A stretch of DNA of 37,842 nt, taken from contig JBEKQJ010000003.1 of the NCBI GenBank assembly GCA_049519835.1, positions 1-37,842 of the forward strand. Reading direction: 5' to 3'. The position numbers and the translations under genes are program-made. The notes beneath the pieces were generated by a model that did no database searches, was not told the DNA's origin, and was given only the letters and a program-made list of their open reading frames with translations. Shown here piece after piece: positions 2,362 to 32,024 of this stretch (the stretch's first letter is position 1; each line of letters opens with the position of its first letter). The DNA comes from Caulobacteraceae bacterium (GTDB lineage Bacteria; Pseudomonadota; Alphaproteobacteria; Caulobacterales; Caulobacteraceae).

Positions 2362-2381
2362 TAATTGAAGCCTGTCAGCTA

Positions 2382-5300
2382 TTAGAAATCGGCGGTGAGA
2401 CCGAAAAAGATGTAGCGGCCGAGCGGGTCATAGACCTGCGGGAAGGTGTTACCCGAGCAAACGGTGGCCGGACATTCGTCTGTGCCAATGATGGGTGGGT
2501 TGCGGTCGAAGATATTGTTGACGCCGACCCGGAAGGTGTAGCGGTTCTTGAAGCGATATTGACCCACCAGATCAAACCAATTGTAAGACTCGATCCGGCA
2601 GTCTGCGCACCCGGTCTCGCCTGTATCGAGACTAACCGGACCCGTATAGCGCCAAGCTACCGAAAGTTCGAGGTTGGGCCATGGCGTAGACCAGGTGACA
2701 CGCGTCTTCGATTTCCAACTTGGCAATGGGCCGGATAGCAGATTGCCGTTGCCCTGGTCCGAGGACGCCTGGCACGTCAGGCCGTATTTGCCGACGCACT
2801 CTAGAACCGGAGAGCCGACAATGCCGGTGTAAAACTGATAATCGTGGGTGTAGGTGCCGAGGAAGTTGATGTCGACACTGCCCCAATCCGGCGCGCCGAA
2901 GTCCCTGAAGCTGAATCGGTAGTCGGCGGTGAAGTCGATGCCGGAGGTTTTGATGAAGCCGGAATTCTGCACAACATCGATGACGTAGCCGGACGTAGGT
3001 GCGCCGACGACCGTGGTGCCGAGCCACAGAGAGCCGGTGCTGGCCGCCCGGTGAATGAGATCGCAAAATGACGTATCGCCCGTCGCCGCGCAGGTCGCCA
3101 GAATATTGTCGGCGCCGTAGCTTTGGATAACGTTGGTGATCTTGGTGTTGAAGTAGTCCGCCGACGCCGTGAAACCATGAATGAGGCTGTGCGGCGTGAA
3201 CACGATGCCCAGGGAATAGGTGCCCGCGGTCTCCGGCTTGAGATCAGGGTTGCCGCCGGTCAGCCCATTGTACTGAGCGGCGGGGTTGGCGACGATATGG
3301 CCATATTGAGAGGCCGAAACGCCGGTGTTGGCGCATTGCGCCGGCGAGGGCATGGCTGGCGTGACGGGGCCCGCGCACGGGTCTGAGTTGCCGTCCAACC
3401 CAACCGACTGAGGCGTGAACAGCTCGACCACGTTGGGCGCGCGCACCGTACGATTGTAGCCGCCGCGGATGCGGAAGTCGTCGTTGATCGCCCAGTCGCC
3501 CGAGATCTTATAGGTGGAGGTCGATCCGATGGTGGTATAATTCGAGTAACGGTAGCCAAGCTCGGCGCTCAGATTTTTGAAGAACGGAACATCTTCAATG
3601 AATGGAAGGCGCGCTTCGCCGAACACTTCCTTGACCGCGTACGAACCAGCCACACTGAGTTTCGGGCCGCCCTGTCCGGCCAGGTCGCCTGACGAATATT
3701 CCTCATCGTAAGTGTTCGAGAGCGTTTCACGACGGTATTCTGCGCCAAGGGCGATTCCGATGCCGTCCGAGGCCCAAGGTGACTTGAGGCCATATTGGCC
3801 CAGATCACCCGTAATCGAACCGCTGACCACTTGCTCCGTATCGACGCCCTCTTCCAATCCTGGGGCGCTCAGATAGGCCGTCTGAGCCGCGGTGACACCG
3901 CCCGGAGTCCATATATTGTAAGGGATGCAGCCACCCGAGGGGTTGGCGCAGACGGCCGTCCCGTTCGGGCCAGGGACGGCGTAGAGGGCCTGGGCGAGCT
4001 TGGACTTCGATATGTCGTTCAAGAACGACTCAGTGAGGAGCGATGTCGCGTATTGGGCATAGATATTGTAGCTCCACCCGGAACCGATATCGCCCTTCAT
4101 GCCGATAACGGCGCGATAGTCCGTGTGGCGAAGATCATTGATGCGATCACCGCCTTCGACGTTGCGTCGAAGGAGTACGAGGCTGTTGTTGACCGCCGTG
4201 GAGGTCGGGCCGGTGGGCAAACCATATTGACCGCAGACGGCGTGAAGCTCGTTCGCCGACAGCAGCGGATCATTGCAGGGGATGCTGTAGGTAAAGCCGA
4301 ACACGCCGCTGGGAGCGACTTGGGCCACCGTGCTATCGTCCATGAACATGAAGCTGGCGAAGGTCTGCAACGCCGGACTGATGTCGTAATGGGAGAAAAA
4401 GCCGCCGGTATAGCGCTCATCCGACCGCTGGAAATAGTTCAGCGCCCCATAGTTAAACAGTCCCGTCCCATCGAACGGCTTCAAGTTTCCAGGATTCGCC
4501 GTGTCGAGCGTGTAGACGGGAGCGGACTTGGCTCCCGCCGGAACTGAAAAGTTCGGCCCATAGACAATGAATGTGCCGAGGGCGTCGGTCTCCGAGCCGC
4601 GGCAAACGAACCCGGTGCGGGCCGAATTCAGCGCTTGGGTGCAGGCGCTGTAATCCCGAGTGGCTTGCAGCACAGGGTCGGTGTGCCGATAGTCGAGATA
4701 GGCTTCGACATTGCCCTTGTCGTCCGGAGAATTCGCCCCAAAGATTATGCTGACATCGGCGGTATAGCCGTCAATGACATTGCCGCTGGGCGTCGGAAAG
4801 CCTGCGGCCCGGGTGGCCGCCTGCGACCCCGAACTGTTGTTGTCGTTCTGATTGAAACCGTAGTTGACGTCCAGTTGAAGGCCCTGGAAGTTCTTCTTCA
4901 TCATGATGTTGACCACGCCCGCCACGGCGTCGGCGCCATAGACCGCCGATGCGCCGGCGGTGTCGACCTCGACTCGATCGATCAAAGCCGCAGGTATGAA
5001 GTTGAGATCGGGCACAGGGTCGAGCGGATCGCCGGGCACCAGGCGTTGGCCGTCGATCAGCACCAGGGTCCGCTTTGAGCCGAGGTCGCGCAGCGAGACT
5101 GTGGCGGTTCCCGAGGCGCCATTGGCAAGATAGGCGCCCTGTTCGGCGACGACTTGCGGCAACTGATTGATCAGGTCCTCTACCCGGGTGGCGCCGGACA
5201 GCTGCACCTCCCGATTGCTGACCGTGGTCACCGGCGCGATGCTGGTCAGGTTCTTCTCAGGGATGCGCGATCCGGTGACCACCAACGCCTGCACGGCGGT

Positions 5301-5441
5301 CGCAGGCGGGGCGGCTTGGTCGGCGGGAGCGGCGGGAGCGGCCGTCTGGGCGTGCGCCGCTGTCATGGAAAAGGCCGCCAGGGTGACGCCGGATATCATT
5401 GACGACGCCAGGAGGCGGCTTCGTGCGGACGCGTTGGTCAA
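2382..5441 (-). CDS. TonB-dependent receptor
   Basis: Signal peptide ending AHA-Q, TonB box LVVTGSRI, plug motif RTLVLIDGQR...IPAALIDRVEV...GASAVYGADAVAGVVNI, and C-terminal GVNNIFDRNPP...GRYIFFGLTADF ending in Phe. Start moved to TTG at 5441, which has GGGGGA 7 nt upstream. Confidence 0.95.
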   Translation of the reverse strand: MTNASARSRLLASSMISGVTLAAFSMTAAHAQTAAPAAPADQAAPPATAVQALVVTGSRIPEKNLTSIAPVTTVSNREVQLSGATRVEDLINQLPQVVAEQGAYLANGASGTATVSLRDLGSKRTLVLIDGQRLVPGDPLDPVPDLNFIPAALIDRVEVDTAGASAVYGADAVAGVVNIMMKKNFQGLQLDVNYGFNQNDNNSSGSQAATRAAGFPTPSGNVIDGYTADVSIIFGANSPDDKGNVEAYLDYRHTDPVLQATRDYSACTQALNSARTGFVCRGSETDALGTFIVYGPNFSVPAGAKSAPVYTLDTANPGNLKPFDGTGLFNYGALNYFQRSDERYTGGFFSHYDISPALQTFASFMFMDDSTVAQVAPSGVFGFTYSIPCNDPLLSANELHAVCGQYGLPTGPTSTAVNNSLVLLRRNVEGGDRINDLRHTDYRAVIGMKGDIGSGWSYNIYAQYATSLLTESFLNDISKSKLAQALYAVPGPNGTAVCANPSGGCIPYNIWTPGGVTAAQTAYLSAPGLEEGVDTEQVVSGSITGDLGQYGLKSPWASDGIGIALGAEYRRETLSNTYDEEYSSGDLAGQGGPKLSVAGSYAVKEVFGEARLPFIEDVPFFKNLSAELGYRYSNYTTIGSTSTYKISGDWAINDDFRIRGGYNRTVRAPNVVELFTPQSVGLDGNSDPCAGPVTPAMPSPAQCANTGVSASQYGHIVANPAAQYNGLTGGNPDLKPETAGTYSLGIVFTPHSLIHGFTASADYFNTKITNVIQSYGADNILATCAATGDTSFCDLIHRAASTGSLWLGTTVVGAPTSGYVIDVVQNSGFIKTSGIDFTADYRFSFRDFGAPDWGSVDINFLGTYTHDYQFYTGIVGSPVLECVGKYGLTCQASSDQGNGNLLSGPLPSWKSKTRVTWSTPWPNLELSVAWRYTGPVSLDTGETGCADCRIESYNWFDLVGQYRFKNRYTFRVGVNNIFDRNPPIIGTDECPATVCSGNTFPQVYDPLGRYIFFGLTADF

Positions 5442-5545
5442 ATCTGGATCCCCCAAACAGGCAGAGTCTTTTCATGCGGCGTGTCCGCTCAAAATGAACG
5501 GCAATCTCCATTTGGAGCCGCCAGTAACCTGCTTGCTACGCCCTT

Positions 5546-7123: not shown

Positions 7124-7222
7124 CTGACAGCCTGATCCCGACATGCCCCGTTCGGGGCATGCGCCGCCTTCGCTTCCCATGCCAGCGTCCGCTAGCGGCG
7201 CGTGACGAGCTGGGAGCGGCGG

Positions 7223-8608
7223 ATGAGCGAGACCTTCACCTACACCGGCACAATCGAGCATGTGACGGTCGCGGCCAGCGGAACCTACACCATCGATGTT
7301 GACGGCGCGCAGGGCGGCCAGAGCACGTTCGCCGGCGAGAATGGCGGCCTGGGTGCGGCAGTCGGCGGCGACATCTTTCTGGCCGCCGGCACGCAGCTCG
7401 AGATCGTGGTCGGCGGCGACGGCTACAGCGACATCTGGGGCGGTGGGGGCGGCGGGGCCAGCTACGTCATCGAGACCTTCAACGGCACGTCGAGCGTCGA
7501 CACGATCCTGGCCATCGCCGGCGGCGGTGGTGGCGGCGGCGTCTCCGGGGTTGGCGGCGGCGGCATCGCCGGCCCGAACGGTGACGACGGGGCCGGCGCA
7601 AGCGGCGGCCTCGCCGATGACAACGGCCTCAACGGGGCCGGCGAGGGCGGCGGCAACTCCGGCGGCGGTGGCGGCGGATTCACCGGCGGCGGCGGCGCCC
7701 CCAACATTGGCGAAAGCGGTCTGGACGGTGGCCACACCGGCGTCACCTTTCTCGGCGGAGACTCGACAGATCCAGGCGGCGGCGGATTCGGCGGCGGCGG
7801 CGCGGGCGGCGGCTATGGCGGCACCGGCTTCCACGGCGGCGGCGGCGGTGGCGGCGGCCTTGGCGGCGGCGGCGGGGGGACCAACAGCGGCGGCGGTGGC
7901 GGCGGCTCCTATCTGGCCAGCGGCTTCACGCACACGTTCGGGGCCGACGGCGATTCAAGCGAGGGCCATGCGGGCAACGGCGAAATCACCATCACACCGC
8001 CCGTCTGCTTCTGCTCGGGGACGCTGATCCGCACCACGCGGGGCGAGGTGGCGGTCGAGGACCTGACGGTCGGCGACCTGGCGGTGACGGCTTCGGGCGA
8101 GGCGCGTCCGATCATCTGGATCGGCCACAAGCGGATCTTGCGGCCGAGCCGCGTTGAGCAGCCGGTGCGGGTGGCGCCGGACGCCATTGGTGAGGGCCTA
8201 CCGGCGCGGCGTCTGCGGCTCTCACCTGGCCATGCGGTGTGCCTGAGCTTCGTCGAAGAGGTGTTCGTTCCGGTGAGCGAGCTGATCAACGACGCCACGA
8301 TTGTCCGCGAGGCGGTGGGCGAGGTCACCTACTGGCACGTGGAGCTGGAGACTCACGACGTGCTGCTGGCCGAAGGCCTGCCCTGCGAGAGCTACATGGA
8401 CGCCGGCAACCGCGCCTTCTTCGGCCGCCAGTACGGCCGCCTGGAAACGATCGATGCGGAACGCGTCGCCGAAAGCCTGACCCGCTACGCCCGGCCGTTC
8501 GTGATCGATGAAGCCACAACCGCCGCCATGCGCCGTCGCCTCGAAAAAAGGGCGGAAAGGCTCGCAGCATCGTCTTCTACGAGGGCCTCGAGGCGCGAAG
8601 CGTCCTGA
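7223..8608 (+). CDS. glycine-rich (ALK/LTK-like) domain fused to a Hint (bacterial intein-like) domain
   Basis: ATG 7223 with GGGAG upstream. N-terminus TFTYTG...GTYTI...GAQGG...GGLGA...LEIVVGG.G...GGGGGASYV...LAIAGGGGGGG with poly-Gly tracts. Then VCFCSGTLIRTTRGEVAVEDLTVGD...LRLSPGHAV...YWHVELETHDVLLAEGLPCESYMDAGNR (Hint_2 type). Confidence 0.85.
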   Translation: MSETFTYTGTIEHVTVAASGTYTIDVDGAQGGQSTFAGENGGLGAAVGGDIFLAAGTQLEIVVGGDGYSDIWGGGGGGASYVIETFNGTSSVDTILAIAGGGGGGGVSGVGGGGIAGPNGDDGAGASGGLADDNGLNGAGEGGGNSGGGGGGFTGGGGAPNIGESGLDGGHTGVTFLGGDSTDPGGGGFGGGGAGGGYGGTGFHGGGGGGGGLGGGGGGTNSGGGGGGSYLASGFTHTFGADGDSSEGHAGNGEITITPPVCFCSGTLIRTTRGEVAVEDLTVGDLAVTASGEARPIIWIGHKRILRPSRVEQPVRVAPDAIGEGLPARRLRLSPGHAVCLSFVEEVFVPVSELINDATIVREAVGEVTYWHVELETHDVLLAEGLPCESYMDAGNRAFFGRQYGRLETIDAERVAESLTRYARPFVIDEATTAAMRRRLEKRAERLAASSSTRASRREAS

Positions 8609-14267: not shown

Positions 14268-15815
14268 TCAGCTCTCCCTCCGCCCGGACCTGGCGAATGG
14301 CACGCTGATCAGCACGGCCGCGGTCAGCAGGGCGACGAGAGCCCAGGCCTCGTCGATCGACTGGGTCATGGCCGCCTTGTCGACCAGCGGGCGCAGGAAT
14401 TCGCGGGTGGCGTCGTCCGGCGGTCCCGGGGGTCGGTTGAGAAAGAGGTCCATCGGGATGCCGACGAACCTGGCCATCGCGACATCGCCGGCCGCCAGGC
14501 GGCGCGCGATCTCCGCGGCGTGGGTGTGGACCCGGCCGTAGATCACGGTGTCGATCAGGGCCAGGCCGATGGCGCCACCCAGGTTGCGCATCAGGTTGAA
14601 GAGGCCGCTGGCGTCGGGGACGTGGTGGTCGGCGAGGTGGCCCAGGGCCAGGCGGGTCGGCGGCAGCAGACAGAACATGATCGCCGCGCCGCGCAGGACC
14701 TGGGGCCAGAACATGCCGGCGAAATCGGTCTGCGGCGTGGCGGCGGCGCTCAGTCCCAGCCCGATTGCGAAGAGGGCGAAGCCGAACGCGGTGAGCCAGC
14801 GGGCGTCGAGGCGCTGCTCGAGAACCACGGCTGCAGGCGCGGCGGCCAGTTGGCAGCAGCCGGTCACCAGCATGACGATGCCGATCTGGACGGCGTCGTG
14901 CCCGCGCACGTAACCCAGGAACACCGGCATCATGTAGACCGAGCCGTAGAGGCCGATCCCAAGCACGAAGCTGAGCAGGCAGCCGATGGCGAAGCGCCGA
15001 TCGAGGAAGGTGCGCAGGTCGACGATCGGCGCGCGGGCCTGCCAGAGACGCTTGCCGCAGGCCGCGGCCGAGGCGAGGGCGAGGGCGAGCAGGCCAAGCA
15101 CCAGCGGCGAGGACCAGCCGCGCGACGGCGCCTCCTTCAGACCGATCTCAAGCGTGGCCAGGGCGAGGGCCAGCAGGATGAGGGCGAGGATGTCGAGGGA
15201 GCGGCCCTCGCGCCAACGCAGCGGCGCGCGCGGCGCGAACAGGGTCACGACAATGGCGGTCACCACGCCGGGGGTGACGTTGATCAGAAACAGCCACCGC
15301 CAGGAATAGGTCGAGGTGATCCAGCCGCCGACGATCGGCCCCACGGTCGGGGCGAGGACGGCCAGAACGCCGGCGATCATAGTCGCCAGGCCTTGCCGCT
15401 CGACTGGAAACAGCAGGAAGACGGCCGAGAACACGGTCGGTATGAGCACGCCGCCGGCGAAGCCCTGGATGATCCGCCAGCCGATCAGCGAGGCGAAGCC
15501 GCCGCTGAACGCACAGCCGATCGATGCGACGGTGAAGACGACAATCGAGATGACGAACAACCGCCGCATGCCCAGCGCGCGGATCAGCAAGCCGGTGAGC
15601 GGGATGGCGATTACTTCGGCGACGAGATAGGCCGTCTGGATCCAGCTGATGCGCTGGCGGGCGATGGCGAGGGCGTCGCCGATCGTCGGCAGGGCGGTGG
15701 CGACGATCTGGATGTCGAGAATGGCCATGAACATGCCGACGCTCATGGCCGCAAAGCCGACCCAGGCCGCAGCCGGCCCCAACTCATGGCGCTTTGCCTC
15801 AGCCGCGGGCGGCAA
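14268..15815 (-). CDS. DHA2 (EmrB/QacA) family MFS efflux permease
   Basis: GMFMAILDIQIVATALP, WIQTAYLVAE, RIIQGFAGG, APTVGPIVGG.IT...SWRWLFLIN and ASGLFNLMRNLGGAIG. The TTG start overlaps the upstream stop; exact start uncertain. Confidence 0.92.
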   Translation of the reverse strand: MPPAAEAKRHELGPAAAWVGFAAMSVGMFMAILDIQIVATALPTIGDALAIARQRISWIQTAYLVAEVIAIPLTGLLIRALGMRRLFVISIVVFTVASIGCAFSGGFASLIGWRIIQGFAGGVLIPTVFSAVFLLFPVERQGLATMIAGVLAVLAPTVGPIVGGWITSTYSWRWLFLINVTPGVVTAIVVTLFAPRAPLRWREGRSLDILALILLALALATLEIGLKEAPSRGWSSPLVLGLLALALASAAACGKRLWQARAPIVDLRTFLDRRFAIGCLLSFVLGIGLYGSVYMMPVFLGYVRGHDAVQIGIVMLVTGCCQLAAAPAAVVLEQRLDARWLTAFGFALFAIGLGLSAAATPQTDFAGMFWPQVLRGAAIMFCLLPPTRLALGHLADHHVPDASGLFNLMRNLGGAIGLALIDTVIYGRVHTHAAEIARRLAAGDVAMARFVGIPMDLFLNRPPGPPDDATREFLRPLVDKAAMTQSIDEAWALVALLTAAVLISVPFARSGRRES

Positions 15816-16305
15816 GTTCGGCTCCAGCCAGCGCAGCGTTTTCGGCGCGAATCCGGATGGCCAGCACAGCGGCGTTGGCCAGCGAGAATACCAGGGCGAC
15901 GATCGGCGCCCCTAGCGCCAGGGGCAGGCAGGCGATCTCGCCGACGACCACCAGGTAGTTGGGATGACGCAAGAAGCGATAGGGCCCGCTGGTCACCAGG
16001 GGCGCTCCGGGAAGGATGATGATGCGGGTCGTCCACCGCCGCCCGAGGGTCGCCAGGGTCCAGACCCGCAGGCCCTGCAGCAGCAGGAAGATCGCCAGCC
16101 AGCCCCATTGCAGGGGATGGTCCCTGGCCAGCCACCATAGGGCGACCAGCCAGCTGGCGTGGAGCAGGACGATGACCGGATAGTGCGCGGCGGCGACCTC
16201 ATAGGCGCCGGCCGCCAGCAGGGCGGCGGTGTTGCGTTGCGCGAGCCAGAGCTCGGCGAGACGTTCGGCCGCGACCAGGAGGAGGAGCGCCTCGGCCACC
16301 GTCAT
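15799..16305 (-). CDS. isoprenylcysteine carboxyl methyltransferase family protein (SrsB/BpsB-like polyketide O-methyltransferase)
   Basis: ERLAELWLAQRNT, HYPVIVLLH, LGRRWTTRII, GPYRFLRHPNYLVVVGE and RIRAEN motifs; directly downstream of a type III PKS. Confidence 0.9.
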   Translation of the reverse strand: MTVAEALLLLVAAERLAELWLAQRNTAALLAAGAYEVAAAHYPVIVLLHASWLVALWWLARDHPLQWGWLAIFLLLQGLRVWTLATLGRRWTTRIIILPGAPLVTSGPYRFLRHPNYLVVVGEIACLPLALGAPIVALVFSLANAAVLAIRIRAENAALAGAELAARG

Positions 16306-16315
16306 GCGGCGCCCC

Positions 16316-17365
16316 TCATGCGGCCTGCGACAGCGCCACGCTGCTGGCGGTGAAGCCAGGACCCATGGCCGTCAGCAGCGTCCGGCCCGGCAGACCGGTC
16401 GCCATGGCGCGCTCGAGGACGAAGAGGGCGGTCGGCGCTGACATGTTACCGAACTGCGCCAGCACCTCGCGTTCGACGTTGAGAGCCCCCTGACCGAGGT
16501 CGAAGGCGTCCTCGAGGGCCTCGATCACCTTGGCGCCGCCCGGATGGAAGACGAAGCGGTCGACATCGCCCAAGGTAAGGCCGCCGCGGCTGAGAATACC
16601 GCTGACGGCGGGGGCCATGCTCTCGCGGGCGAAAGGGGGGATGGCGCGATCGAAGATGACCCCGAAGCCGGGCGCATCGACGGTCCAGCCCATGATTTCC
16701 AGGGTGTCCGGCCAGGTGTGCTGGCCGCTCATTTCAATGGCCAGTTCGCCGGCGTCGTCCGCCTTTACGACGCAAGCGGCCGCGCCATCGCCGAACAGGG
16801 CGGTGGCGACGATATTGGCCTTGGTCAGTTCATCGTGGCGGAAGGCCAGCGTGCAGAGCTCGACCGTCACCATCAGAACCACGCTGCCAGGCCGCGCCTG
16901 CGCCAGGCGGCCGGCCAGGGCGAGACCGGACACGCCGCCGGCGCAGCCGAGACCGAAGACCGGCACTCGCTCGACGTCGGCGCGAAAACCGAGGCGGCCG
17001 GCGGCGCGGGCTTCCAGGCTGGGCGTGGCGATGCCGGTGGAGGAGACCGTGACGATCGTATCCACGTCGCTGGCGCGCAGGCCCGCCCCCTCGAGCGCCT
17101 TGCCGGCGGCGTCAATGAACAGCTCGACGGCCCCCTCGAGATAGGCTGCCATGCGTTCAGGCCAGCCGAGCGGCGTGAAATACCAGTCGATCGGGCGGAC
17201 CGCGAACCGCCGGGAGATGCCCGAGCTTTCGAAGACACGGGCCATCCGGTCGAAATCGCCGAAGCGCCCCGCGAACAGGCTGCGCGCCGCGATGGCGATG
17301 TCGCCCTGCGCGAAGCAATGCGGCGGCGTCGCCGTGGCGACAGACAACAATTTCGGGGGCCGCAT
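16316..17365 (-). CDS. type III polyketide synthase (SrsA/BpsA-like alkylresorcinol/alkylpyrone synthase)
   Basis: Catalytic triad GLGCAGG / HPGG / GNMS, plus STGIATPSL, VELCTL, ALFGDGAAA and AMGPGF. Confidence 0.95.
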   Translation of the reverse strand: MRPPKLLSVATATPPHCFAQGDIAIAARSLFAGRFGDFDRMARVFESSGISRRFAVRPIDWYFTPLGWPERMAAYLEGAVELFIDAAGKALEGAGLRASDVDTIVTVSSTGIATPSLEARAAGRLGFRADVERVPVFGLGCAGGVSGLALAGRLAQARPGSVVLMVTVELCTLAFRHDELTKANIVATALFGDGAAACVVKADDAGELAIEMSGQHTWPDTLEIMGWTVDAPGFGVIFDRAIPPFARESMAPAVSGILSRGGLTLGDVDRFVFHPGGAKVIEALEDAFDLGQGALNVEREVLAQFGNMSAPTALFVLERAMATGLPGRTLLTAMGPGFTASSVALSQAA

Positions 17366-23591: not shown

Positions 23592-24692
23592 TTAAGTTCT
23601 TGAAAGAGCCCGCGACACGGCGCCGCTGCTCAGGGTCGGTTGTTGACGGGACATCCCGGCTAGGGGTCGGGAGGTGGCAGGGAGCCGCAGCCGGCGGGCG
23701 CGATCGGCCATGTATTCGACGCGGGCCTGGGCGAGCCGGCCGATCGAGCCCACCAGCAGGCCCACGCCAAGGATCGCGCCGCCGATCGCCCGGCCCGCAT
23801 CGCGGACCGGTTCGCTGCCGGCTTCTGGCTCTTGAAGCCAGGTGTTCAGGACGGCGCCGGAGACGATCAGCGCGCCGCCGAGATAGCCGCCGATGGTCAG
23901 GGTTTCGCCGAGGCCCAGGTGGGCGATGAGCGCGCCCCAGACGGGTTCCAGCACGTAGAGGAAGGCGACGGTGACGGGGTTGATGTAGCGTTGGAAGAAG
24001 ATCGAAATCGCGGTCGGCAGGAACGTCGTCGCCAGGCCCGCGTAGACGATCCATGGCCAGACACTGCCGAAGCCGGCCGCAGTCAGCCCGCGCGCATGCC
24101 CGGAGACGCCGGTGGCGACCGCCGAGAGCACGGCCATGGTGACCACTTCGGTTGCGAACATCGGCAATAGGGAGCGCTGGTCGCCTGAGCTGAGCTTGTC
24201 AGCGCAGAAGATGTAGATCGTGTAGATAACGGCCGCGGCGAGACCGATGCCGTCGCCCAGCAGATGGCCGCCACCCTTGGTGACCTGCGAGATGAGCAGC
24301 ATGGCGCCGAGCACGGACAGCAGGCCGGCGCTCCAGGTCACCCAGCCCACCGGCCGGCGGAAGATCAGCCAGGCGATGAGCGCGGCGACGAAGCCGTTGA
24401 TGGCCGGATAGAAGGCGGTATCCGTCGCCGTAGTGTAGGCGAGCGCCCAGGTGCTGGTCAGGACGCCAGCGTAAAGCACCATCCCGAGCACGACGCCGCG
24501 CCGAACGACCTGGAAGTTCAGTCGCCGCCAGGTGGCCGCGAGAATGACCAAGGCTGGAACGGCCGCGACGGCGAGTTCCGCAGTAGAAAAAACGAAGGGA
24601 TCAGCAAATCCTAGAGAGAATTTGCCGGCCGCATAGAACGACCCCCAAAGTATCGGGTTGAGACTAAACAAGAGAACGGAGAGGGTTTTCAT
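23592..24692 (-). CDS. DMT/EamA family transporter
   Basis: About 10 hydrophobic segments in two repeats; ILWGS.Y, GDGIGL.AA..Y, Y.GLATT and LEPVWGALIA...LGETL. ATGA overlap with the upstream gene. Confidence 0.9.
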   Translation of the reverse strand: MKTLSVLLFSLNPILWGSFYAAGKFSLGFADPFVFSTAELAVAAVPALVILAATWRRLNFQVVRRGVVLGMVLYAGVLTSTWALAYTTATDTAFYPAINGFVAALIAWLIFRRPVGWVTWSAGLLSVLGAMLLISQVTKGGGHLLGDGIGLAAAVIYTIYIFCADKLSSGDQRSLLPMFATEVVTMAVLSAVATGVSGHARGLTAAGFGSVWPWIVYAGLATTFLPTAISIFFQRYINPVTVAFLYVLEPVWGALIAHLGLGETLTIGGYLGGALIVSGAVLNTWLQEPEAGSEPVRDAGRAIGGAILGVGLLVGSIGRLAQARVEYMADRARRLRLPATSRPLAGMSRQQPTLSSGAVSRALSRT

Positions 24693-25594
24693 GACAGGGT
24701 CCCTGCGGATGAAACCTTGGAAAGTGAAAGTCTTTCGCCACGATCAAAATACGATGCCCATGCGTTGATCACTGCGTTGGCATAGATAATAGGCATGTTG
24801 TGAATGTATCTTTCCTTCTTGGTCTCGGCGAAGGCCGGGTCTTTATGGAAAGCAACCCAATTTCGTTTGTCTTCGGTCAGATGCACGGGACATCGAGACG
24901 TATTGGTTATGGCTGCGTAGTTCTTGATGGTTTTCTCAGCCATGCGCTGCCACGGGTCGGCGCAACGCGCGAGAATGCTCTTGGCCTCGGCCTTGTCCTC
25001 GATTTCGTGGGGGGCCTTGCCGGCGTGGAGCTCGGACGTGTCCCTGGCGAACATCGCGAAAGCGAAGATGTCCGATGTAATATTCACGCATAGATATGGC
25101 GCCGCCATCAGCGGGTCGTAGAGCGGATCGGACTCGTCGTCGGACTGCGGACAGAAGGCGATCGCGTCGAAGTCGTCATACTCGGTCGGTGTGCCGGTGA
25201 CCGGGCAGGTGAGGGTCAGGCGCTTGTTCAGCGCGCCGCCGTTGAGCAGCGTGGTCGCCGGCACATCGCTGAGGATCGCCATCCGCTCTGAAAGATAGAT
25301 CATGGCGTCTTCGACGCTGGCCGGCCCGCTCTTGTAGAAACGCGGCTCGTTGAAGACGAACAGGCAGCCGACGCTCAGCCGCCTCGACAGACGACAGGCG
25401 AATTCGGAGAACAGATCTAGAATGTCGTCGTCGTCATCGACAACGCGAATGAGATAGCGGCCTTTCTGAAACTCACGACGCCCAGCAATGCAACGCAAAC
25501 CAGAGCCTAGCCACTGAGTCATTTCCTCCAGCACCGTCGCGTCCGGAAGCTTGGGCGCAAGGGCTGTGGAAGCGCTCGTGGAACAAAACTGCAT
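24689..25594 (-). CDS. hypothetical protein, possibly a divergent YqcI/YcgG-family (DcsA/GntA-like) heme enzyme
   Basis: ATG 25594 with AGGGGA RBS; 301 aa, soluble, translationally coupled to EamA. The CDS itself is solid. The family call rests on by-eye similarity of LRCIAGRREFQKGRYLIRVV..D and FDAIAFCP...PYLCVN to FPCVGAK..L..G.L.I.V..D and FFVVGLHP...PALVFN. Confidence 0.6.
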   Translation of the reverse strand: MQFCSTSASTALAPKLPDATVLEEMTQWLGSGLRCIAGRREFQKGRYLIRVVDDDDDILDLFSEFACRLSRRLSVGCLFVFNEPRFYKSGPASVEDAMIYLSERMAILSDVPATTLLNGGALNKRLTLTCPVTGTPTEYDDFDAIAFCPQSDDESDPLYDPLMAAPYLCVNITSDIFAFAMFARDTSELHAGKAPHEIEDKAEAKSILARCADPWQRMAEKTIKNYAAITNTSRCPVHLTEDKRNWVAFHKDPAFAETKKERYIHNMPIIYANAVINAWASYFDRGERLSLSKVSSAGTLS

Positions 25595-25622
25595 GACGAG
25601 ATTCCCCTGTGGATTCGCGACG

Positions 25623-25640
25623 ATGCGTGACGCACGCATA
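25623..25640. promoter_or_regulatory. palindromic operator box 1 (candidate MarR site)
   Basis: ATGCGTG-acg-CACGCAT, a perfect 7-3-7 inverted repeat about 30 nt upstream of ATG 25594. Confidence 0.65.
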
Positions 25641-25804: not shown

Positions 25805-26332
25805 CTATGCACGTTGAAATCCCCCCAGTGGTTCGACCGGGCAACGGTCGTAGGGACACACGTCTTCGTCACAGAGGCGGCAGACGTGATCCGACTCATG
25901 GCGAGAGGCGACCAGGCGCGGCATGACCTTCTCGGCGATGCGGGTGAGGACCTCCCATTCATCGGCGGCAAGGTCTTCCAGGGCGCCGTCCAGCAACGAC
26001 CGGCGAGTGAGTAGAATATCGTACATCGCCGCCCGACCAGCGGGAGTCAGAGCCAGTCTGACGACCCGACCGTCAGCGCCGCGGGCCTTCTGGATCAGGC
26101 CATCACTCTCCAGGCGCTCGGCGATGCGCACGGCGGCGGAATGAGACAGGTTGAGTGTTGTCGCCAATCTGTCGATAGACTCATTCGGATTGGCGCCGAT
26201 CTGGACGATCGCGGCCGGCGCGCCGGCGATGTAACCGGACTTCGACTCGATCGTGTCCCGCAGCTTGTCTGCGACCGCCAGGGCGAGCGCCCCGAACAGA
26301 TTGGACGTACGGAGGCGTTCGGGATTTTCCAT
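25805..26332 (-). CDS. MarR-family transcriptional regulator with C-terminal 4-Cys motif
   Basis: Winged HTH LATTLNLSHSAAVRIAERLESDGLI.K...DGRVVRLALTPAGR; tail CRLCDEDVCPYDRCP. Start taken as ATG 26332 (the track gives TTG 26368). Confidence 0.9.
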   Translation of the reverse strand: MENPERLRTSNLFGALALAVADKLRDTIESKSGYIAGAPAAIVQIGANPNESIDRLATTLNLSHSAAVRIAERLESDGLIQKARGADGRVVRLALTPAGRAAMYDILLTRRSLLDGALEDLAADEWEVLTRIAEKVMPRLVASRHESDHVCRLCDEDVCPYDRCPVEPLGGFQRA

Positions 26333-26437
26333 CCGTGAGGATATATCTCCCACTGTTACATATATCAAGCAATCGTTAAGACCAGATCTGAAGCGTTGCT
26401 TTAGCGACGCCCGCAGAGAGGTCGCTCGGCGACAGGC

Positions 26438-27988
26438 TCAGGACTGGACGGTCGGCGCCGGGGCTGAATCGCGCCGCGCCTTTGGCCGCTTGGCAGGCGA
26501 GGCTTCGGAAGCGGCAGTGGCTGCCGGCTTCCTGACTGGCGGCGTGGCGGCGGGCGGCTCGGCCGCCGCGGCGGCGATCGGCGGCAGTTCGGCGATCTCG
26601 CGCAGGGTCGCCACGCCGCGCTTGATGAGTTCGTGCGCCTCATCCTGCGAGAGGACGCGGCGGCAGGCGGTGACGCCGATCTCCAGGCGTCCGGCATAGC
26701 TCTGAACGGTGAGGTTCACCGCCGCGCCGTGGTACGGGATCGACACCGGGATGTAGTGCGCCATCCGGGCGCCGGCGACATAGAGCGGCGTTGGCGGGCC
26801 GGGCACGTTCGAGATTACCACGTTGCCCATCGGCGGCAGCTGCCCGGCCAGATTGGATCGGCCGGCGAAACTGGCCATGCCGCTCAGCAGCCACGGCGCA
26901 CCCATCACCGGCACGTCGACGCCGAGGACCGGCTTCAACTCGCGGACCATGGCCTTGCCGGCCTCCGACGAGGCGTGAATGATCCGCAGCCGTTCGGCGA
27001 GGTCCTTGATGTCAGTCGCCAGGTCGACGCGGATCATGGTGACTTGATTGTTGGGGGAGTCGTCGTCGGCTGCGCGCAGGCTGACGGGCACCAAGGCGAT
27101 GATCGAGGCGGCAGGAAGTTGGCCGCGCTCGGCGAGAAAACCGCGCACGGCCCCGCTGCACATGGCCATGACGATGGTGTTGATCGTGCCGCCGACGCGC
27201 TTGCCGAGCGCCTTCACCTCGTCCATCGGCAGGGACAGGGTGGCGTAGGTGCGCTGGTTGGTGATCGGGACGTTGAAGATCGTCCGGGGCGCCGCGCCGA
27301 GCGGCAGGGGCCGTCCGCCGGGCGGGTTGTAGTTGCTGGCGAAGGCGCGCGCCCCGCCGCTGAGCGCCTTGGCGGCGTCCGGCAACAGATTGCCGAGCTT
27401 GCGGTACTGCATGGCGGAATTCTCGATCGCCGCGCGCAGAAGCTCGTTGACGCCCAACTGATAGGCGCCGCCCGCGCGCCGCCGGGTCGGCGGCGGGACG
27501 TCGCGAATCTCGGGGCTGGAGTCGTAGAGCACCTTGGCCAGCTCGGCCCCGGACTTGCCGTCCACCCCGCTGTGGTGGAACTTGGTGTAGAGTCCCACCT
27601 GACCGTTCGCGACCCCCTCGATGATATAGATTTCCCAGAGCGGCCGACTGCGATCGAGCAGGCTGGAGTGCAGCCGGGCGACCAGCTGTTCGACCTGGGC
27701 CATGGAGCCGGGCTTGCGGACGTTGAGGCTGCGGACGTGATAGTCGAGGTCGATGTCGTCGTCCTCTATCCACACCGGCTCCGCCAGCTCGAAGGGCATC
27801 GTCGCCAGCTTGCGAGTCATGGCGCGCGAGAGGTGGATGCGCTTGCCGATCATCGCCTTGAAGTCGTCGTAGAAGTCGCCGTCGTAGCCCTCCGGCAAGT
27901 CGATCAGCATCAGGCTGCCGACGTGCATCGGCGTCTCCGGCGTTTCGAGGTGCAGAAACGACGCGTCGAGGCCGCTCAGATGTTCCAT
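26438..27988 (-). CDS. wax ester synthase/diacylglycerol acyltransferase (WS/DGAT)
   Basis: LSGLDASFLHLETPETPMHVG, LDRSRPLWE, catalytic HHSGVDG, VPVSLR and NVVISNVPGP. ATG 27988 after GGAGGAG. Confidence 0.95.
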   Translation of the reverse strand: MEHLSGLDASFLHLETPETPMHVGSLMLIDLPEGYDGDFYDDFKAMIGKRIHLSRAMTRKLATMPFELAEPVWIEDDDIDLDYHVRSLNVRKPGSMAQVEQLVARLHSSLLDRSRPLWEIYIIEGVANGQVGLYTKFHHSGVDGKSGAELAKVLYDSSPEIRDVPPPTRRRAGGAYQLGVNELLRAAIENSAMQYRKLGNLLPDAAKALSGGARAFASNYNPPGGRPLPLGAAPRTIFNVPITNQRTYATLSLPMDEVKALGKRVGGTINTIVMAMCSGAVRGFLAERGQLPAASIIALVPVSLRAADDDSPNNQVTMIRVDLATDIKDLAERLRIIHASSEAGKAMVRELKPVLGVDVPVMGAPWLLSGMASFAGRSNLAGQLPPMGNVVISNVPGPPTPLYVAGARMAHYIPVSIPYHGAAVNLTVQSYAGRLEIGVTACRRVLSQDEAHELIKRGVATLREIAELPPIAAAAAEPPAATPPVRKPAATAASEASPAKRPKARRDSAPAPTVQS

Positions 27989-28023
27989 GATGATCTCTCC
28001 TCCTGAAGCCGCGCCGCAGCCGG

Positions 28024-28458
28024 CTAGACCTTCGGCTGCAGCAGCTTCTGCAGCTCGGCCATGTTCTGCTGCATGCGGTCCTGCACCACCTTCCAAGCGT
28101 CGGCGCGGGCCTTGGCTTCCAGCTCTGTCAGTTCGCGGAAGTTGGCCATCGCCTTCTCGACGCCCTGCCGCGCCATCTCGCCCCCCTTGGAGAGAGCGTC
28201 AGGGCTGGTGGCGTCCTTGAGGGCGGCCTGCCATTGGGCCACAGCCTCGGCGAGGATCTCATTGCGCCGCTCGAAGGAGGCGCGGGCGCCGTCGGTCAGC
28301 ACCTTGCCGGCCTCGGTCACCGCCTCGAGATCCTTACGCTGCCACTCGGCGACCGCTGAGAGATCGACCCCGGGGAGAGGGTATTTCGAGGCAAGTTCCT
28401 GAAGGCTGTCGAACCAGGAGGCTGCGGCCGCGTCGGCGGATTTCTTGCTTTCGGCCAT
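28024..28458 (-). CDS. phasin family protein
   Basis: LPGVDLSAVAEWQRKDLEAVTEAGK...G......RRNEIL...KAMANFRELTE...AWKVVQDRM matches the phasin pattern. ATG 28458 after GAGGGAG. Confidence 0.8.
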   Translation of the reverse strand: MAESKKSADAAAASWFDSLQELASKYPLPGVDLSAVAEWQRKDLEAVTEAGKVLTDGARASFERRNEILAEAVAQWQAALKDATSPDALSKGGEMARQGVEKAMANFRELTELEAKARADAWKVVQDRMQQNMAELQKLLQPKV

Positions 28459-28508
28459 TGGATCTCTCCCTCGTCGTTGCGCCCCGCGGGGGCTGTCGTT
28501 GCGAATTC

Positions 28509-29312
28509 CTAGGCCGCTGGCGCCCAGGCGAACCAGGCCGCGTCCTCGCCACGATCGGGGTCCGGATAGAGGCAGGTCGGCTGGCTCTGACGATCGAACG
28601 GCCGCCATTCGCCTTCGGGCAGTGCGAGCCGGTCGGCGATCGCGTGCAGCACGGCCGGATTGTGCCCGAGGCCACAGTGGCTGCCCTCGACCTCGATGTT
28701 CTCCGACGCAGCGCCGGCCTGCTCGCGGCAGCCCTGCCAGGCGACGACGCCGTCGGTGCGCGAATAGATCGCCGTGCTCGGCACGGGAGGCGGGGTCTTC
28801 ATGCGGACCCGCTCAGGCCAATCGTCTGCGGTCCGGCCGCTCAAACCCTCGTACAGCCGCCAGGCGTTCGACGCCCTGGGCTCGCTGGCGAAGGGGCTGC
28901 CGAGTGTGATGACTTGGCGCACGTGTTCAGGGCGCCGGCGCGCCAGTTCGCGGGCGTAGACGCCACCGAGGCTCCAGCCGATCAGGCTGACCTTGCGCCC
29001 GTGGCGATGGAAGAGTTCGTCCAGCCGCTGTTCGACGCGCGCCTCGACGCCGGAGCGCGGGCCGCGGTTGGGGCCGAGCTTCCAGCCGTGAGCGGCGTAG
29101 CCGAGATCCCGCAGCAAGCCGCGCAGCGGACGCGTCGACAGGTCGCTGGCGGCGAGGCCGGGGATGACGAGGACCGGGTGGCCGTCGCCCGGCGGCGCGC
29201 GCAACAGCAACGGGTAGGCCGCGAAGAAGGCGCCGAGCTCAAGGAAGCCGCGCGCCTCCAGCGCCAGCAACAGCAGAGAGGGCGGCTTCATGGCCTCAGC
29301 CGTCGAACCCAT
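28509..29312 (-). CDS. alpha/beta hydrolase (lipase/esterase-like)
   Basis: GDGHPVLVIPG, nucleophile elbow GWSLGG, ITLGSP, YSRTDGVV and SHCGLG (Ser-Asp-His triad). Confidence 0.9.
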   Translation of the reverse strand: MGSTAEAMKPPSLLLLALEARGFLELGAFFAAYPLLLRAPPGDGHPVLVIPGLAASDLSTRPLRGLLRDLGYAAHGWKLGPNRGPRSGVEARVEQRLDELFHRHGRKVSLIGWSLGGVYARELARRRPEHVRQVITLGSPFASEPRASNAWRLYEGLSGRTADDWPERVRMKTPPPVPSTAIYSRTDGVVAWQGCREQAGAASENIEVEGSHCGLGHNPAVLHAIADRLALPEGEWRPFDRQSQPTCLYPDPDRGEDAAWFAWAPAA

Positions 29313-29520
29313 CGCGCCGCGCCTCCCTCACCATCGCCGCGGATTTTCCGCGTTCGCCAAGCCGTACGGTCCCGGATCGACTACAAAGAGCCGGAGTATC
29401 CGTCGCGTCAACCAAAAGCCGCCCCAGGACCGCCAGGGCTTGACGGCGCGCCCACCGCCCGCGACGGTCAGTTCCAAGGAGCGGCCCGCCCAGAGCGCCG
29501 CCGCGAGAGTGAGACGCCAG

Positions 29521-29889
29521 ATGACCCAGTCCGCGGACTTCGTGGAATTGTGGCGCGAGGCGCTGCAGAAATGGGAGCGCCAGACCAACGAGGCGCTCAC
29601 CGCCGCTTCGGCCGACGAAAACGTCAGCCGGGTGATGAATCAGTCGATGGCCGCCATAGCCAGGCTGCAGGCCAAGCAGGGCGAGGCGATCGAACGTGAA
29701 CTGATCCGCTACAACCTGCCCAGCCGTGCCGATTTCCGAGAACTAGCGGCCCGCCTGGAGGGGATCGAGGCTCAGCTTGGCGAAATTCGCGACCTGCTGC
29801 GCGGCGCCGTCGCACCCACGGAGGCTTCGCCCGCGCCGCCCAAACCAGCCCGCACGCGCAAGCCGCCCCAGCCGGACAGCGCCGGATGA
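29521..29889 (+). CDS. short PhaE/PhaR(Bacillus)-like PHA synthase partner subunit
   Basis: 122-aa helical protein with NLPSRADFRELAARLEGIE, like the C-terminal NLP(T/S)R motif of PhaE. ATGA overlap with phaC. Confidence 0.65.
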   Translation: MTQSADFVELWREALQKWERQTNEALTAASADENVSRVMNQSMAAIARLQAKQGEAIERELIRYNLPSRADFRELAARLEGIEAQLGEIRDLLRGAVAPTEASPAPPKPARTRKPPQPDSAG

Positions 29890-30962
29890 GCGAGGCGACC
29901 GCGGCGCCCGATGTGGTTGCGCGGCTGCAGGCCGAGATCCAGCGCGCGCAGGCTCGCAACATCAAAGGCTGGAACTATCTGGTCTCGGCCGGACCGCAGC
30001 GCGGCGTCACACCCAAGGATGTGGTGCTGAACCGGGGCACGCTCAGCCTCTACCACTACCGTGCGCAGGTTTCCGAAGTCTATCGAACGCCGGTCCTGTT
30101 CGTGATGGCGACGACCAACCGCGCCTTCATTTTCGACCTTGCGCCGGGCCAGAGCTTCGTCGAATTCCTGCTGCAGCGCGGCTACGACGTCTACGTCATC
30201 GACTGGAATCCGCCGCGCGAGGATGAGAAGCGGCTGGGATTCGAAGACTACATCCTGGATTTCATCCCGGCCTGTGTCGCCGAGGTTCAGGCGCGCTCGG
30301 GCGAAGACCAGGTGAGCGTGGTCGGCTACTGCATGGGCGGGGTGCTGGCGCTGATGTACGCCGCCCTGCACGGTGAGGGGCAGGTGCGCAATCTCACCTG
30401 CTTCACCACGCCGTTCAACTGGAGCAACTTCGGCCTTTTCAACCGCTGGGCCGATCCGCGTCACTTTGACGTCGACACCATCCTCGACACTTTCGGCAAC
30501 ATGCCGGCGGATCTGATTTCGGCCAGCTTCGATATGCTGCGACCGGTAAGCAAGGCGGTCAGCCAGGTGCAATTATGGGACAACATGTGGAACGACGAGT
30601 TCGTGAAGTCCTACCGCGCGTTCGACCGCTGGGGCGCCGAAACCCTGCCGTTGGCGGGTGAGTACTTCCGCCAGACGGTCAAGGAGCTGATGTTCGGCAA
30701 CAAACTCTACACCGGTGAACTGGAGATCGGCGGCCGCCGGGTCGACGTCGGCGCCATCACCGCCTCATTCCTGCATGTCGTCGCCGAACATGACCACATC
30801 GTACCGATCGAGGCGTCGCGCGAGCTGGTCGAGCGGGTTGGCTCGGCCGACAAGGAACAGATCGTTCTCAAGGGAGGGCATGTGAGCCTCATCGCAGGAC
30901 CGAACGCCGTGCGCCGGCTGTGGCCGCGCCTCGACGCCTGGCTCGCTCCGAGGTCGGCGTGA
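29886..30962 (+). CDS. phaC: class III/IV-like polyhydroxyalkanoate synthase catalytic subunit
   Basis: 358 aa; GVTPKDVV, PVLFV...NRAFIFDLAPGQSFVEFL..RGYDVY.IDW, Cys lipase box GYCMGG, AEHDHIVP (Asp) and GGHVSL (His). Confidence 0.85.
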   Translation: MSEATAAPDVVARLQAEIQRAQARNIKGWNYLVSAGPQRGVTPKDVVLNRGTLSLYHYRAQVSEVYRTPVLFVMATTNRAFIFDLAPGQSFVEFLLQRGYDVYVIDWNPPREDEKRLGFEDYILDFIPACVAEVQARSGEDQVSVVGYCMGGVLALMYAALHGEGQVRNLTCFTTPFNWSNFGLFNRWADPRHFDVDTILDTFGNMPADLISASFDMLRPVSKAVSQVQLWDNMWNDEFVKSYRAFDRWGAETLPLAGEYFRQTVKELMFGNKLYTGELEIGGRRVDVGAITASFLHVVAEHDHIVPIEASRELVERVGSADKEQIVLKGGHVSLIAGPNAVRRLWPRLDAWLAPRSA

Positions 30963-31546
30963 GCGCCGCCCGCCCCCTGCCGCGCGAGGTGGACTGCGCC
31001 GGCCATGCGGTGACCTTTCGCCTGATGACGCCGGCCGACGGTCCGGCGGTCCTCGCCTTCGCGCGCCGCCTGCCTGCGCACGACCTGCTCTTCCTGCGCC
31101 GCGACATCTCCCATCCGAAGGTGATCGGAGCCTGGATCCGCGACCTCGACAGCGGGCAGCTGATCACGCTTCTGGCCTGGCGCGATGAAATCGTCGTGGG
31201 TTGCGCCACCATTGTGCGCGATCCGCTGTCCTGGTCGGCTCACGTGGCCGAGCTGCGCATCGTGATATCCGAGGAGATGCGCGGCCGGGGCCTCGGCAGC
31301 CTGTTGGCGCAGGAGGCCTTCGCCTATGCGCTAACCGAGGGGGCCGAGAAGCTGTTTGCCCAGATGACGGCCGACCAGCAGGGCGCCATCGCGCTCTTCG
31401 AGGGCTTGGGCTTCGCGCCTGAGGCCATCCTGCGTGATCACGTGCGCGGTCGCGACGGTGTGAAACACGATCTGGTGGTGCTCAGCCACGACGTGGCCCG
31501 CGTCAGCGCCCGCCATGAAGCTTACGGACTGAACGAGGCATTATAA
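30959..31546 (+). CDS. GNAT family N-acetyltransferase
   Basis: GTGA overlap with phaC; acetyl-CoA motif A ISEEMRGRGLGSLL and AIALFEGLGF. Confidence 0.9.
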   Translation: MSAARPLPREVDCAGHAVTFRLMTPADGPAVLAFARRLPAHDLLFLRRDISHPKVIGAWIRDLDSGQLITLLAWRDEIVVGCATIVRDPLSWSAHVAELRIVISEEMRGRGLGSLLAQEAFAYALTEGAEKLFAQMTADQQGAIALFEGLGFAPEAILRDHVRGRDGVKHDLVVLSHDVARVSARHEAYGLNEAL

Positions 31547-31565
31547 GGCGAGAGAGGATCCGGAT

Positions 31566-32024
31566 ATGGCTACAAGAAGCGGCGCCGAAGGCCTGACCAG
31601 GGGATTGAAGAATGCGGGCGAGCGTCTGCGCACCGCCGGCGAGCGCCTGGCCGAGAACAACCGCGCCATCAACCTGCGCCTGATCGAGCAGGCGGAGGAG
31701 AACACCCGCGAGGCGTTCAAGGCGCTGCGCGCCGCCGCCCAGGCCTCGACACTGAAGGACGTCGCCTCGATCCGGGCCCAGTATGTGCGCGATCAGGGCA
31801 AGCGGCAGGTAAGCCACATGCGCGAGGTCGGCGAGTTGATCTCCCGGTTCGGCCGCGAGGCGCTGACGCCGGCAAAGGCTCCGGCCGCCGCGAAGTCCGC
31901 GCCAGCCGCCGCCAAGGCCGCGCCGGCCGCAGCTAAGGCCGCGCCGGCCCCCAAAACTCGCAAACGCACGGCCGCAGCCAAGACGCCGCGCGCACCGAAG
32001 GCTGCGGCGAAGCCCGAGGGTTAG
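31566..32024 (+). CDS. phasin-like protein with Ala/Lys/Pro-rich histone-like tail (PhaF-like architecture)
   Basis: N-terminal amphipathic helices (LRLIEQAEENTREAF.AL..AAQA..LKDV..I...YVRDQ), then PAKAPAAAKSAPAAAKAAP...KTRKRTAAAK. Confidence 0.7.
   Translation: MATRSGAEGLTRGLKNAGERLRTAGERLAENNRAINLRLIEQAEENTREAFKALRAAAQASTLKDVASIRAQYVRDQGKRQVSHMREVGELISRFGREALTPAKAPAAAKSAPAAAKAAPAAAKAAPAPKTRKRTAAAKTPRAPKAAAKPEG
31881..31949 (+). repeat. 21-bp coding tandem repeat (PAAAK[S/A]A x3)
   Basis: CCGGCCGCCGCGAAGTCCGCG / CCAGCCGCCGCCAAGGCCGCG / CCGGCCGCAGCTAAGGCCGCG / CCGGCC. Confidence 0.8.

Follow-up and report, generated by a model that had tools for sequence, protein, structure and literature searches.

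An unannotated bacterial protein family, represented in a Caulobacteraceae genome by a gene for 301 amino acids, very probably shares its ancestry and fold with the YqcI/YcgG heme-thiolate oxygenases, as judged from a predicted model and profile comparisons. Its predicted pocket is acidic, and its genes lie in small cassettes with a transporter, usually a MarR-type regulator and, in Pseudomonas, a homospermidine synthase (HSS). Our tentative reading is that the protein acts as a heme-thiolate oxygenase, N-oxidising homospermidine or a closely related polyamine for export under MarR control. Taken as a whole, this mechanism seems to us plausible, though somewhat short of probable.

The gene and its family

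The window, by which we mean the whole 37,842-nucleotide stretch analysed, carries the gene on the minus strand at 24689..25594, as supported by the open reading frame call, homolog lengths and the predicted structure. The full reading frame (24689-25639, minus strand) would encode 316 amino acids from its first ATG and 301 from the ATG at 25594. The latter is the likely start codon on sequence grounds because a GGGGA element lies 8 nt upstream of it and close homologs have the same length: among the matches listed, the closest five (74-88% identity) have 301 residues in four cases and 296 in one. The frame contains the one claimed in a preliminary description of this DNA, and the motifs quoted there are all present in the translation (WLGSGLRC35IAGRREFQKGRYLIRVVD, LFVFNEP, EDAMIYLSERMAILSD, CPVTG, FDAIAFCPQS, DDESDPLYDP, APYLCVNITSD, HKDPAFAE and HNMP). 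They go beyond chance resemblance because Cys35 and other motif residues are conserved across homologs.

The same description called the protein an orphan, which was wrong. Clustering the homologs at 90% identity gives 155 clusters, and 88 representatives remain at 50%; among these, P0202 and P0203 are long, weak matches that resemble repeat artefacts. According to the records, hosts include Hyphomicrobiales, Steroidobacteraceae, Pseudomonas, Sorangium and Tistrella. Cultured members of Sorangium, Tistrella, Aureimonas and Pseudahrensia carry the family too. Across the homolog alignment CPVT, DPLYD, N171, D175, H250, FAE, K260 and H265 are invariant or almost so. One shorter form, a fragment, was found, and no longer fused form appeared among candidates of 698-2000 amino acids, in a weak search that a fusion described below (locus L029) escaped.

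Annotation resources return almost nothing for the family. Pfam annotation is absent from every homolog cluster listed (the best 120 of 155), and Pfam, NCBIfam and PDB sequence searches with the protein or its profile gave no match. The YqcI/YcgG profile PF08892 matched neither the window protein nor any of 117 close or 32 distant members, nor any of the six frames of the window's genome. Matches to RNF8 (E 0.035-0.046) were judged to be chance, and in the ESM Atlas the matches were hypothetical clusters only, with a MauJ lead in 14% of members. A search of largely open-access literature found nothing on the family or on a link between YqcI proteins and polyamines.

The gene has a GC content of 57% and a GC3 of 0.71 in a genome of 68% GC. 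GC3 is 0.82-0.91 in six of the seven neighbours measured, and the MarR gene has the same value as the window gene. Among 61 relatives searched, the gene was found in the window's own genome only; a single match in G226 (E 4.6e-4) is antisense to an aminotransferase-like reading frame and was set aside. Horizontal acquisition of the cassette would fit these observations, since composition deviates and the gene is confined to one genome among its relatives. There was no phage match, and RNA runs yielded only seven short, low-depth contigs, too little to bear on expression.

Predicted fold, heme site and pocket

The AlphaFold2 model, built with 117 sequences, has a pLDDT of 96 and a pTM of 0.92. 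Its best four Foldseek matches are all AglA, an enzyme of argolaphos biosynthesis (PDB 9UB3, 9UB5, 9UBA, 9UBB and 9UBS), with E 0.008-0.018, probability 0.96-0.98 and TM 0.33-0.35. VIA-align against 48,161 chains gave AglA a Z of 11.4 (rmsd 4.2 Å, 183 aligned residues) and the next, unrelated chain 5.2; in a repeat, five AglA chains scored 11.4-11.9 and the next 4.2. Overall, the model matches the alpha/beta sandwich of AglA over 181-186 residues at 3.8-4.2 Å. Judged by TM (0.34/0.41) and by the Foldseek E (>0.001), this is a match of moderate strength, and AglA is the only YqcI/YcgG structure returned by the PDB searches. Matches to NOS heme domains (Foldseek E >=0.03, Z <=4.1) were too weak and were rejected, and a BFVD fold search returned nothing under E 0.001.

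Profile comparison points the same way. Against only four close canonical proteins hhalign was not significant; against 18 diverse canonical members it gave a probability of 21.5% (E 0.001), rising to 46-57% on a full-length realignment and, when the profile was built from distant members, to 64-70% (E 4e-5 to 9e-6), and reversed or unrelated controls stayed at or below 2.4%. The remote YqcI/YcgG homology first proposed by eye is supported by hhalign and by structure, AglA being the only clear structural match, but is not detected by the Pfam profile. The by-eye alignment itself was reproduced: in hhalign, too, the canonical members have their FPC cysteine opposite Cys35 and their VGLHP opposite AFCP. 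Similarity to GntA-type and ChmN/DcsA-type (PF08892) proteins lies in the N-terminal half, with the cysteine in register, and members of the window family are longer (about 300 amino acids versus 220-290).

Cys35 (codon 25490..25492, minus strand) is the predicted axial heme thiolate. It is present in 118 of 120 alignment rows (the best 120 of 155 clusters; the other two are gaps), and 31 of 35 distant, near-full-length rows keep it. The preliminary description had named lack of its conservation as one ground for refutation, and it is found in 115 of the 115 rows having a residue there; the FP said to be lost before the cysteine is indeed replaced by L-x. In every significant hhalign alignment to the 18 canonical members, Cys35 falls on the FPC cysteine, which is the heme thiolate Cys44 of AglA (accessible text of PMC12866846) and Cys47 of ChmN (available part of bioRxiv 10.1101/2024.01.24.577118). 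We consider it probable that Cys35 ligates heme, and the protein likely resembles AglA, GntA and ChmN in fold and cysteine ligand.

It could be argued that only the fold was inherited and that the protein uses another metal site (C130, C235, H250 and H265), or that it does bind heme but is no oxygenase, as would be the case for a redox-neutral cyclase or a sensor. Each of those four residues is conserved in 117 of 117 close members, the propionate-binding Arg and Lys of AglA appear lost, and no reductase gene recurs among the cassette neighbours, a point that also weighs on the homospermidine reading. Counter to this, Cys35 outlasts C235 and H265 in the distant rows, where the latter decay to 23/35 and 20/35. 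Canonical members beside DUF1989 genes likewise lack a linked reductase within the short flanks available, and the AglA reductase came from a search of the host strain (PMC12866846, as far as its text is available). We regard a non-oxygenase role as distinctly unlikely.

The predicted heme-thiolate oxygenase is about 9% identical to AglA. Shared are the cysteine at the start of helix 2, the strand-3 proline and the strand-4 Asn/Gln region; added are the CPVTG hairpin, the DPLYD loop, an inserted helical segment and an extended C-terminus that contains His. The hairpin (25193..25207, minus strand), described earlier as an insert, is family-specific, and its C130 is also kept in 35 of 35 distant rows; the distinct C-terminus also described there stands out by its conserved H250 and H265. 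The predicted distal-pocket strands run from D143 to D175 (25070..25168, minus strand), in an alignment-derived register, and the acidic DPLYD loop stands there where YqcI/YcgG proteins have an Arg-rich one. This agrees with the substitution seen earlier in DDESDPLYDP: D156, D160 and D175 occur in 117 of 117 members, and D or E occupies position 143 in 116.

AglA residue numbers are taken from PDB alignments, and beyond strand 3 the mapping may be off by two residues. F152 of AglA clamps the arginine chain of the substrate (PMC12866846, accessible portion); its column is F or Y in 18/18 canonical members and aligns with the acidic position 143 here, a register supported by the 11 of 35 distant rows that carry F or Y at that position. 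At the column of the propionate contact R166 (R in 18/18 canonical members) the window protein has L162 or M163. On strand 4, Q177/R179 fall on N171/T173 by eye and on T173/D175 by hhalign; in both registers the substrate-backbone Arg is lost and the invariant D175 is kept on that face. K196 and R200 map by eye to non-basic, variable positions where alignment confidence is low. The AglA propionate contacts R166, K196 and R200 thus all appear unconserved, as does R179, in a register that is partly uncertain; R39, R40, R46 and K260 could be candidate propionate binders instead, R39 (or K) sitting at the Lys position of CVGAK.

The arginyl-substrate clamp of AglA (F152, R179 and F182) is not found in the window family. 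Together with the further invariant acids D156, D160, D175, D252 and E257, which are assigned from sequence, the predicted acidic pocket fits a polycation that has no carboxylate. We file the family as a sister of YqcI/YcgG, not as a member, because the PF08892 profile is not matched and the clamp is absent. A distant subclade (P0136, P0138, P0142, P0146, P0149, P0151-P0153 and others) has F or Y at 143 and often Arg at 149 and 235, with Cys35 and CPVT kept, and could represent another subfamily whose pocket is closer to the canonical one.

The cassette and its link to homospermidine synthase

We compared 44 loci, the window and 43 genome loci with a full gene (L044, a 33-residue match, was excluded). 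A transporter gene is adjacent in all 44, of MFS type in 38 and EamA type in six, and a MarR gene is present in 36. In the window, the EamA/DMT transporter gene (23592..24692, minus strand) is likely translationally coupled to the enzyme gene because its start and the stop of that gene overlap in an ATGA. The regulator (25805..26368, minus strand; translation may actually begin at an internal ATG near 26329) ends in a Cx2Cx4Cx4C tail at about 25841-25882. A winged-helix MarR fold is confirmed by Foldseek (E 1.4e-6 to ST1710), with a Pfam match just under the cut-off (E 4-6e-5); the PDB matches span the MarR core, and the tail is additional to it. Its four cysteines are invariant in 34 of 34 aligned proteins, one with shorter spacing, which makes this MarR subfamily a candidate Zn or Fe-S sensor. 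An open-access search found no literature on the four-cysteine tail.

A further 43 metagenome loci repeat the cassette pattern. In 12 of them (L075, L087, L090, L092-L095, L099, L101, L103, L104 and L112) a Gcw_chp outer-membrane barrel is linked, after the transporter in eight and beyond MarR in four. No phosphonate or peptide cluster is linked to the family, in contrast to AglA. Canonical PF08892 genes also adjoin small-molecule transporters (LysE, amino acid permease). The neighbours of the window family are the four-cysteine MarR, MFS/EamA and HSS genes and not DUF1989. At L047-L050, L116, L128 and L129, which span several phyla, canonical GntA-type genes lie directly before DUF1989/urea-carboxylase-associated genes; this suggests that the GntA-type branch has a housekeeping role involving guanidines.

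Several other gene groups occur in the window. Directly upstream of the cassette, 26438-32024 holds a wax ester/TAG synthase, two phasins and a PhaC-like hydrolase, a cluster that is not conserved beside the family at other loci. A type III polyketide synthase, an ICMT-like methyltransferase and an MFS transporter stand in a row at 14268-17365 (minus strand), which we take to resemble alkylresorcinol/alkylpyrone clusters. A TPR-containing 2OG-Fe(II) oxygenase follows a TonB-dependent receptor at 646-5456 (minus strand), and a Hint-domain protein is encoded at 7202-8608 (plus strand).

MarR, enzyme and transporter together are a common detoxification layout. The cassette could accordingly be catabolic or detoxifying, the porin and transporter moving a polyamine or another amine that the enzyme oxidatively cleaves or inactivates and MarR senses. 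The Gcw_chp barrel would suit such a role, as would the lack of recurrent tailoring genes among the neighbours. However, a biosynthetic HSS, coupled or even fused to the enzyme, is unexpected in a catabolic operon, and a conserved downstream catabolic enzyme is absent, aldehyde dehydrogenase being near the cassette in only 3 of 44 loci. We think this explanation improbable.

The HSS association favours the homospermidine reading. HSS is directly downstream of the window-family gene in five of the 44 loci, all in Pseudomonas and all in the order enzyme, HSS, MFS without MarR. The arrangement recurs in five metagenome loci, and the three-gene operon exists in cultured Pseudomonas strains. In four of the five Pseudomonas loci HSS starts at the enzyme's stop codon or one base later. 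At L029, enzyme and HSS form one in-frame fusion of 767 amino acids in which the HSS start codon is absent; this needed a frame change as well as the loss of that codon, and is based on one metagenome-assembled contig. The cassette HSS matches 6Y87 over its full length (E 1.7e-141), and six conserved motifs, which we take to have catalytic roles, are intact in all cassette copies. In four of the five Pseudomonas carriers it is the only HSS copy found, as would be expected of an enzyme that depends on homospermidine and a cassette that supplies the synthase to hosts without one.

In a draw of 151 Pseudomonas genomes, HSS occurs in 14 and the window family in three, all three beside HSS and one of them decayed; seven further Pseudomonas genomes have HSS without a window-family member in its neighbourhood. 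In a decayed Pseudomonas cassette (L060:3538-5736, G309:C157), what is left of the enzyme is a short N-terminal fragment that reads in frame into HSS; HSS is itself in two pieces and is followed by MFS. The preliminary description proposed a new subfamily with a different substrate, to which the altered predicted pocket and the gene context now lend support; it missed the MarR and transporter cassette and the HSS link, which points to polyamines rather than to Arg or Lys.

Because the five HSS-adjacent loci are one clade (100/100), they count as one event, and this single origin, like the apparent loss of the propionate contacts, argues against the homospermidine reading. It would also be consistent with a heme oxygenase whose substrate is unrelated, a small cation or an amino acid, the HSS link then being a recruitment specific to Pseudomonas. 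EamA transporters usually carry amino-acid-like metabolites, and four carriers (G262, G275, G285 and G298) have neither HSS nor DHS matches; one of them has a carboxyspermidine-dehydrogenase-like gene (a name we inferred). The Pseudomonas and window proteins nonetheless share D143, N171, D175, H250, E257, K260 and H265, and HSS is present in 13 of 13 gammaproteobacterial carriers, which are kin, compared to 2 of 113 genomes outside the window's class in a phylum draw. We view an unrelated substrate as very unlikely.

Looking across carriers, a homospermidine-synthase-type gene (HSS or DHS/SpeY) is present in 40 of 44 compared to 38 of 151 in the phylum draw (HSS in 20, strong DHS in 18, no overlap), a difference partly due to taxonomy. 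The enrichment is modest within the window's class because the background there is already 26/38, compared to 12/113 outside. Thirty-five carriers have an HSS-like gene, 24 at >=46% identity and 11 at 32-39%; the 11 divergent proteins, those of L054 (with altered motifs) and ten other carrier genomes, may have another function, and none of the 20 HSS matches in the draw is as divergent. Five of the nine carriers without HSS, including the window's genome, have a DHS/SpeY-family gene. The homospermidine reading is weakened by the four carriers without either gene and by the lack of any HSS match in the window's own cassette and genome. We regard the co-occurrence as suggestive and attach no statistical test to it because kin are not independent.

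HSS and SpeY are two alternative routes to homospermidine, from putrescine and from agmatine respectively (PMC13625781, available sections). Alternatively, the protein may have kept guanidine N-hydroxylase chemistry and act on a carboxylate-free guanidine, such as agmatine, bis(guanidino)homospermidine (G44G) or aminobutyl-agmatine. YqcI/YcgG proteins are recently solved non-P450 heme-thiolate oxygenases, and all six characterised members hydroxylate guanidines according to the accessible text (PMC12866846), a precedent for this alternative and against any polyamine substrate. The predicted acidic pocket without a backbone-binding Arg would suit these compounds too, DHS/SpeY-family genes occur in the window's genome and in both Sorangium genomes, and SpeY makes G44G (PMC13625781, in the part available). 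Set against this, 35 of 44 carriers have HSS and not SpeY, G260 and G294 have no DHS match, and the Pseudomonas cassette carries HSS, for which agmatine is reported to be a very unlikely substrate (PMC13625781, available sections). A guanidine substrate therefore seems to us unlikely.

Proposed reaction and meaning

Under the homospermidine reading, the four-cysteine MarR would repress the cassette and release it on a metal or redox signal. Homospermidine would be made by host HSS or SpeY (SpeY-type in the window's genome), and hosts without such a route would carry HSS inside the cassette. An unlinked ferredoxin/reductase would supply electrons to heme b on Cys35, as is the case for AglA (PMC12866846) and ChmN (bioRxiv 10.1101/2024.01.24.577118), and the heme would activate O2. 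The polycation would lie along the acidic strand face formed by D143, N171 and D175, which would replace the arginyl clamp of Phe and Arg in AglA. One polyamine nitrogen would be hydroxylated, the N-hydroxy product might oxidise or cyclise further, and export would be by EamA or MFS and, in some hosts, through the Gcw_chp outer-membrane barrel.

A broader form of this reading, which we hold to be possible but rather doubtful, is that the sister family moved from guanidines to polyamines and became a mobile minimal pathway secreting a previously undescribed N-oxidised or cyclised homospermidine metabolite. Such a pathway would have spread over alpha- and gammaproteobacteria and myxobacteria with the four-cysteine MarR and an exporter as partners; candidate products are N-hydroxy-homospermidine, a nitrone, an oxime or a pyrrolizidine-like ring. 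The proposed logic, in which homospermidine is made and then oxidised, recalls the entry into plant pyrrolizidine alkaloids. In plants the oxidation is carried out by a copper amine oxidase, whereas the window-family oxidase would be a heme-thiolate protein, and an alkaloid product is hypothetical here. Plants make homospermidine for these alkaloids by a DHS-derived synthase (PMC13625781, accessible part).

If this proposal is correct, a charge-reversed pocket in a sister family that is invisible to existing profiles would widen the chemistry of the YqcI/YcgG fold. Polyamine oxidation would be a reaction new to this class of enzymes, and homospermidine, a major bacterial polyamine, would gain a concrete fate.
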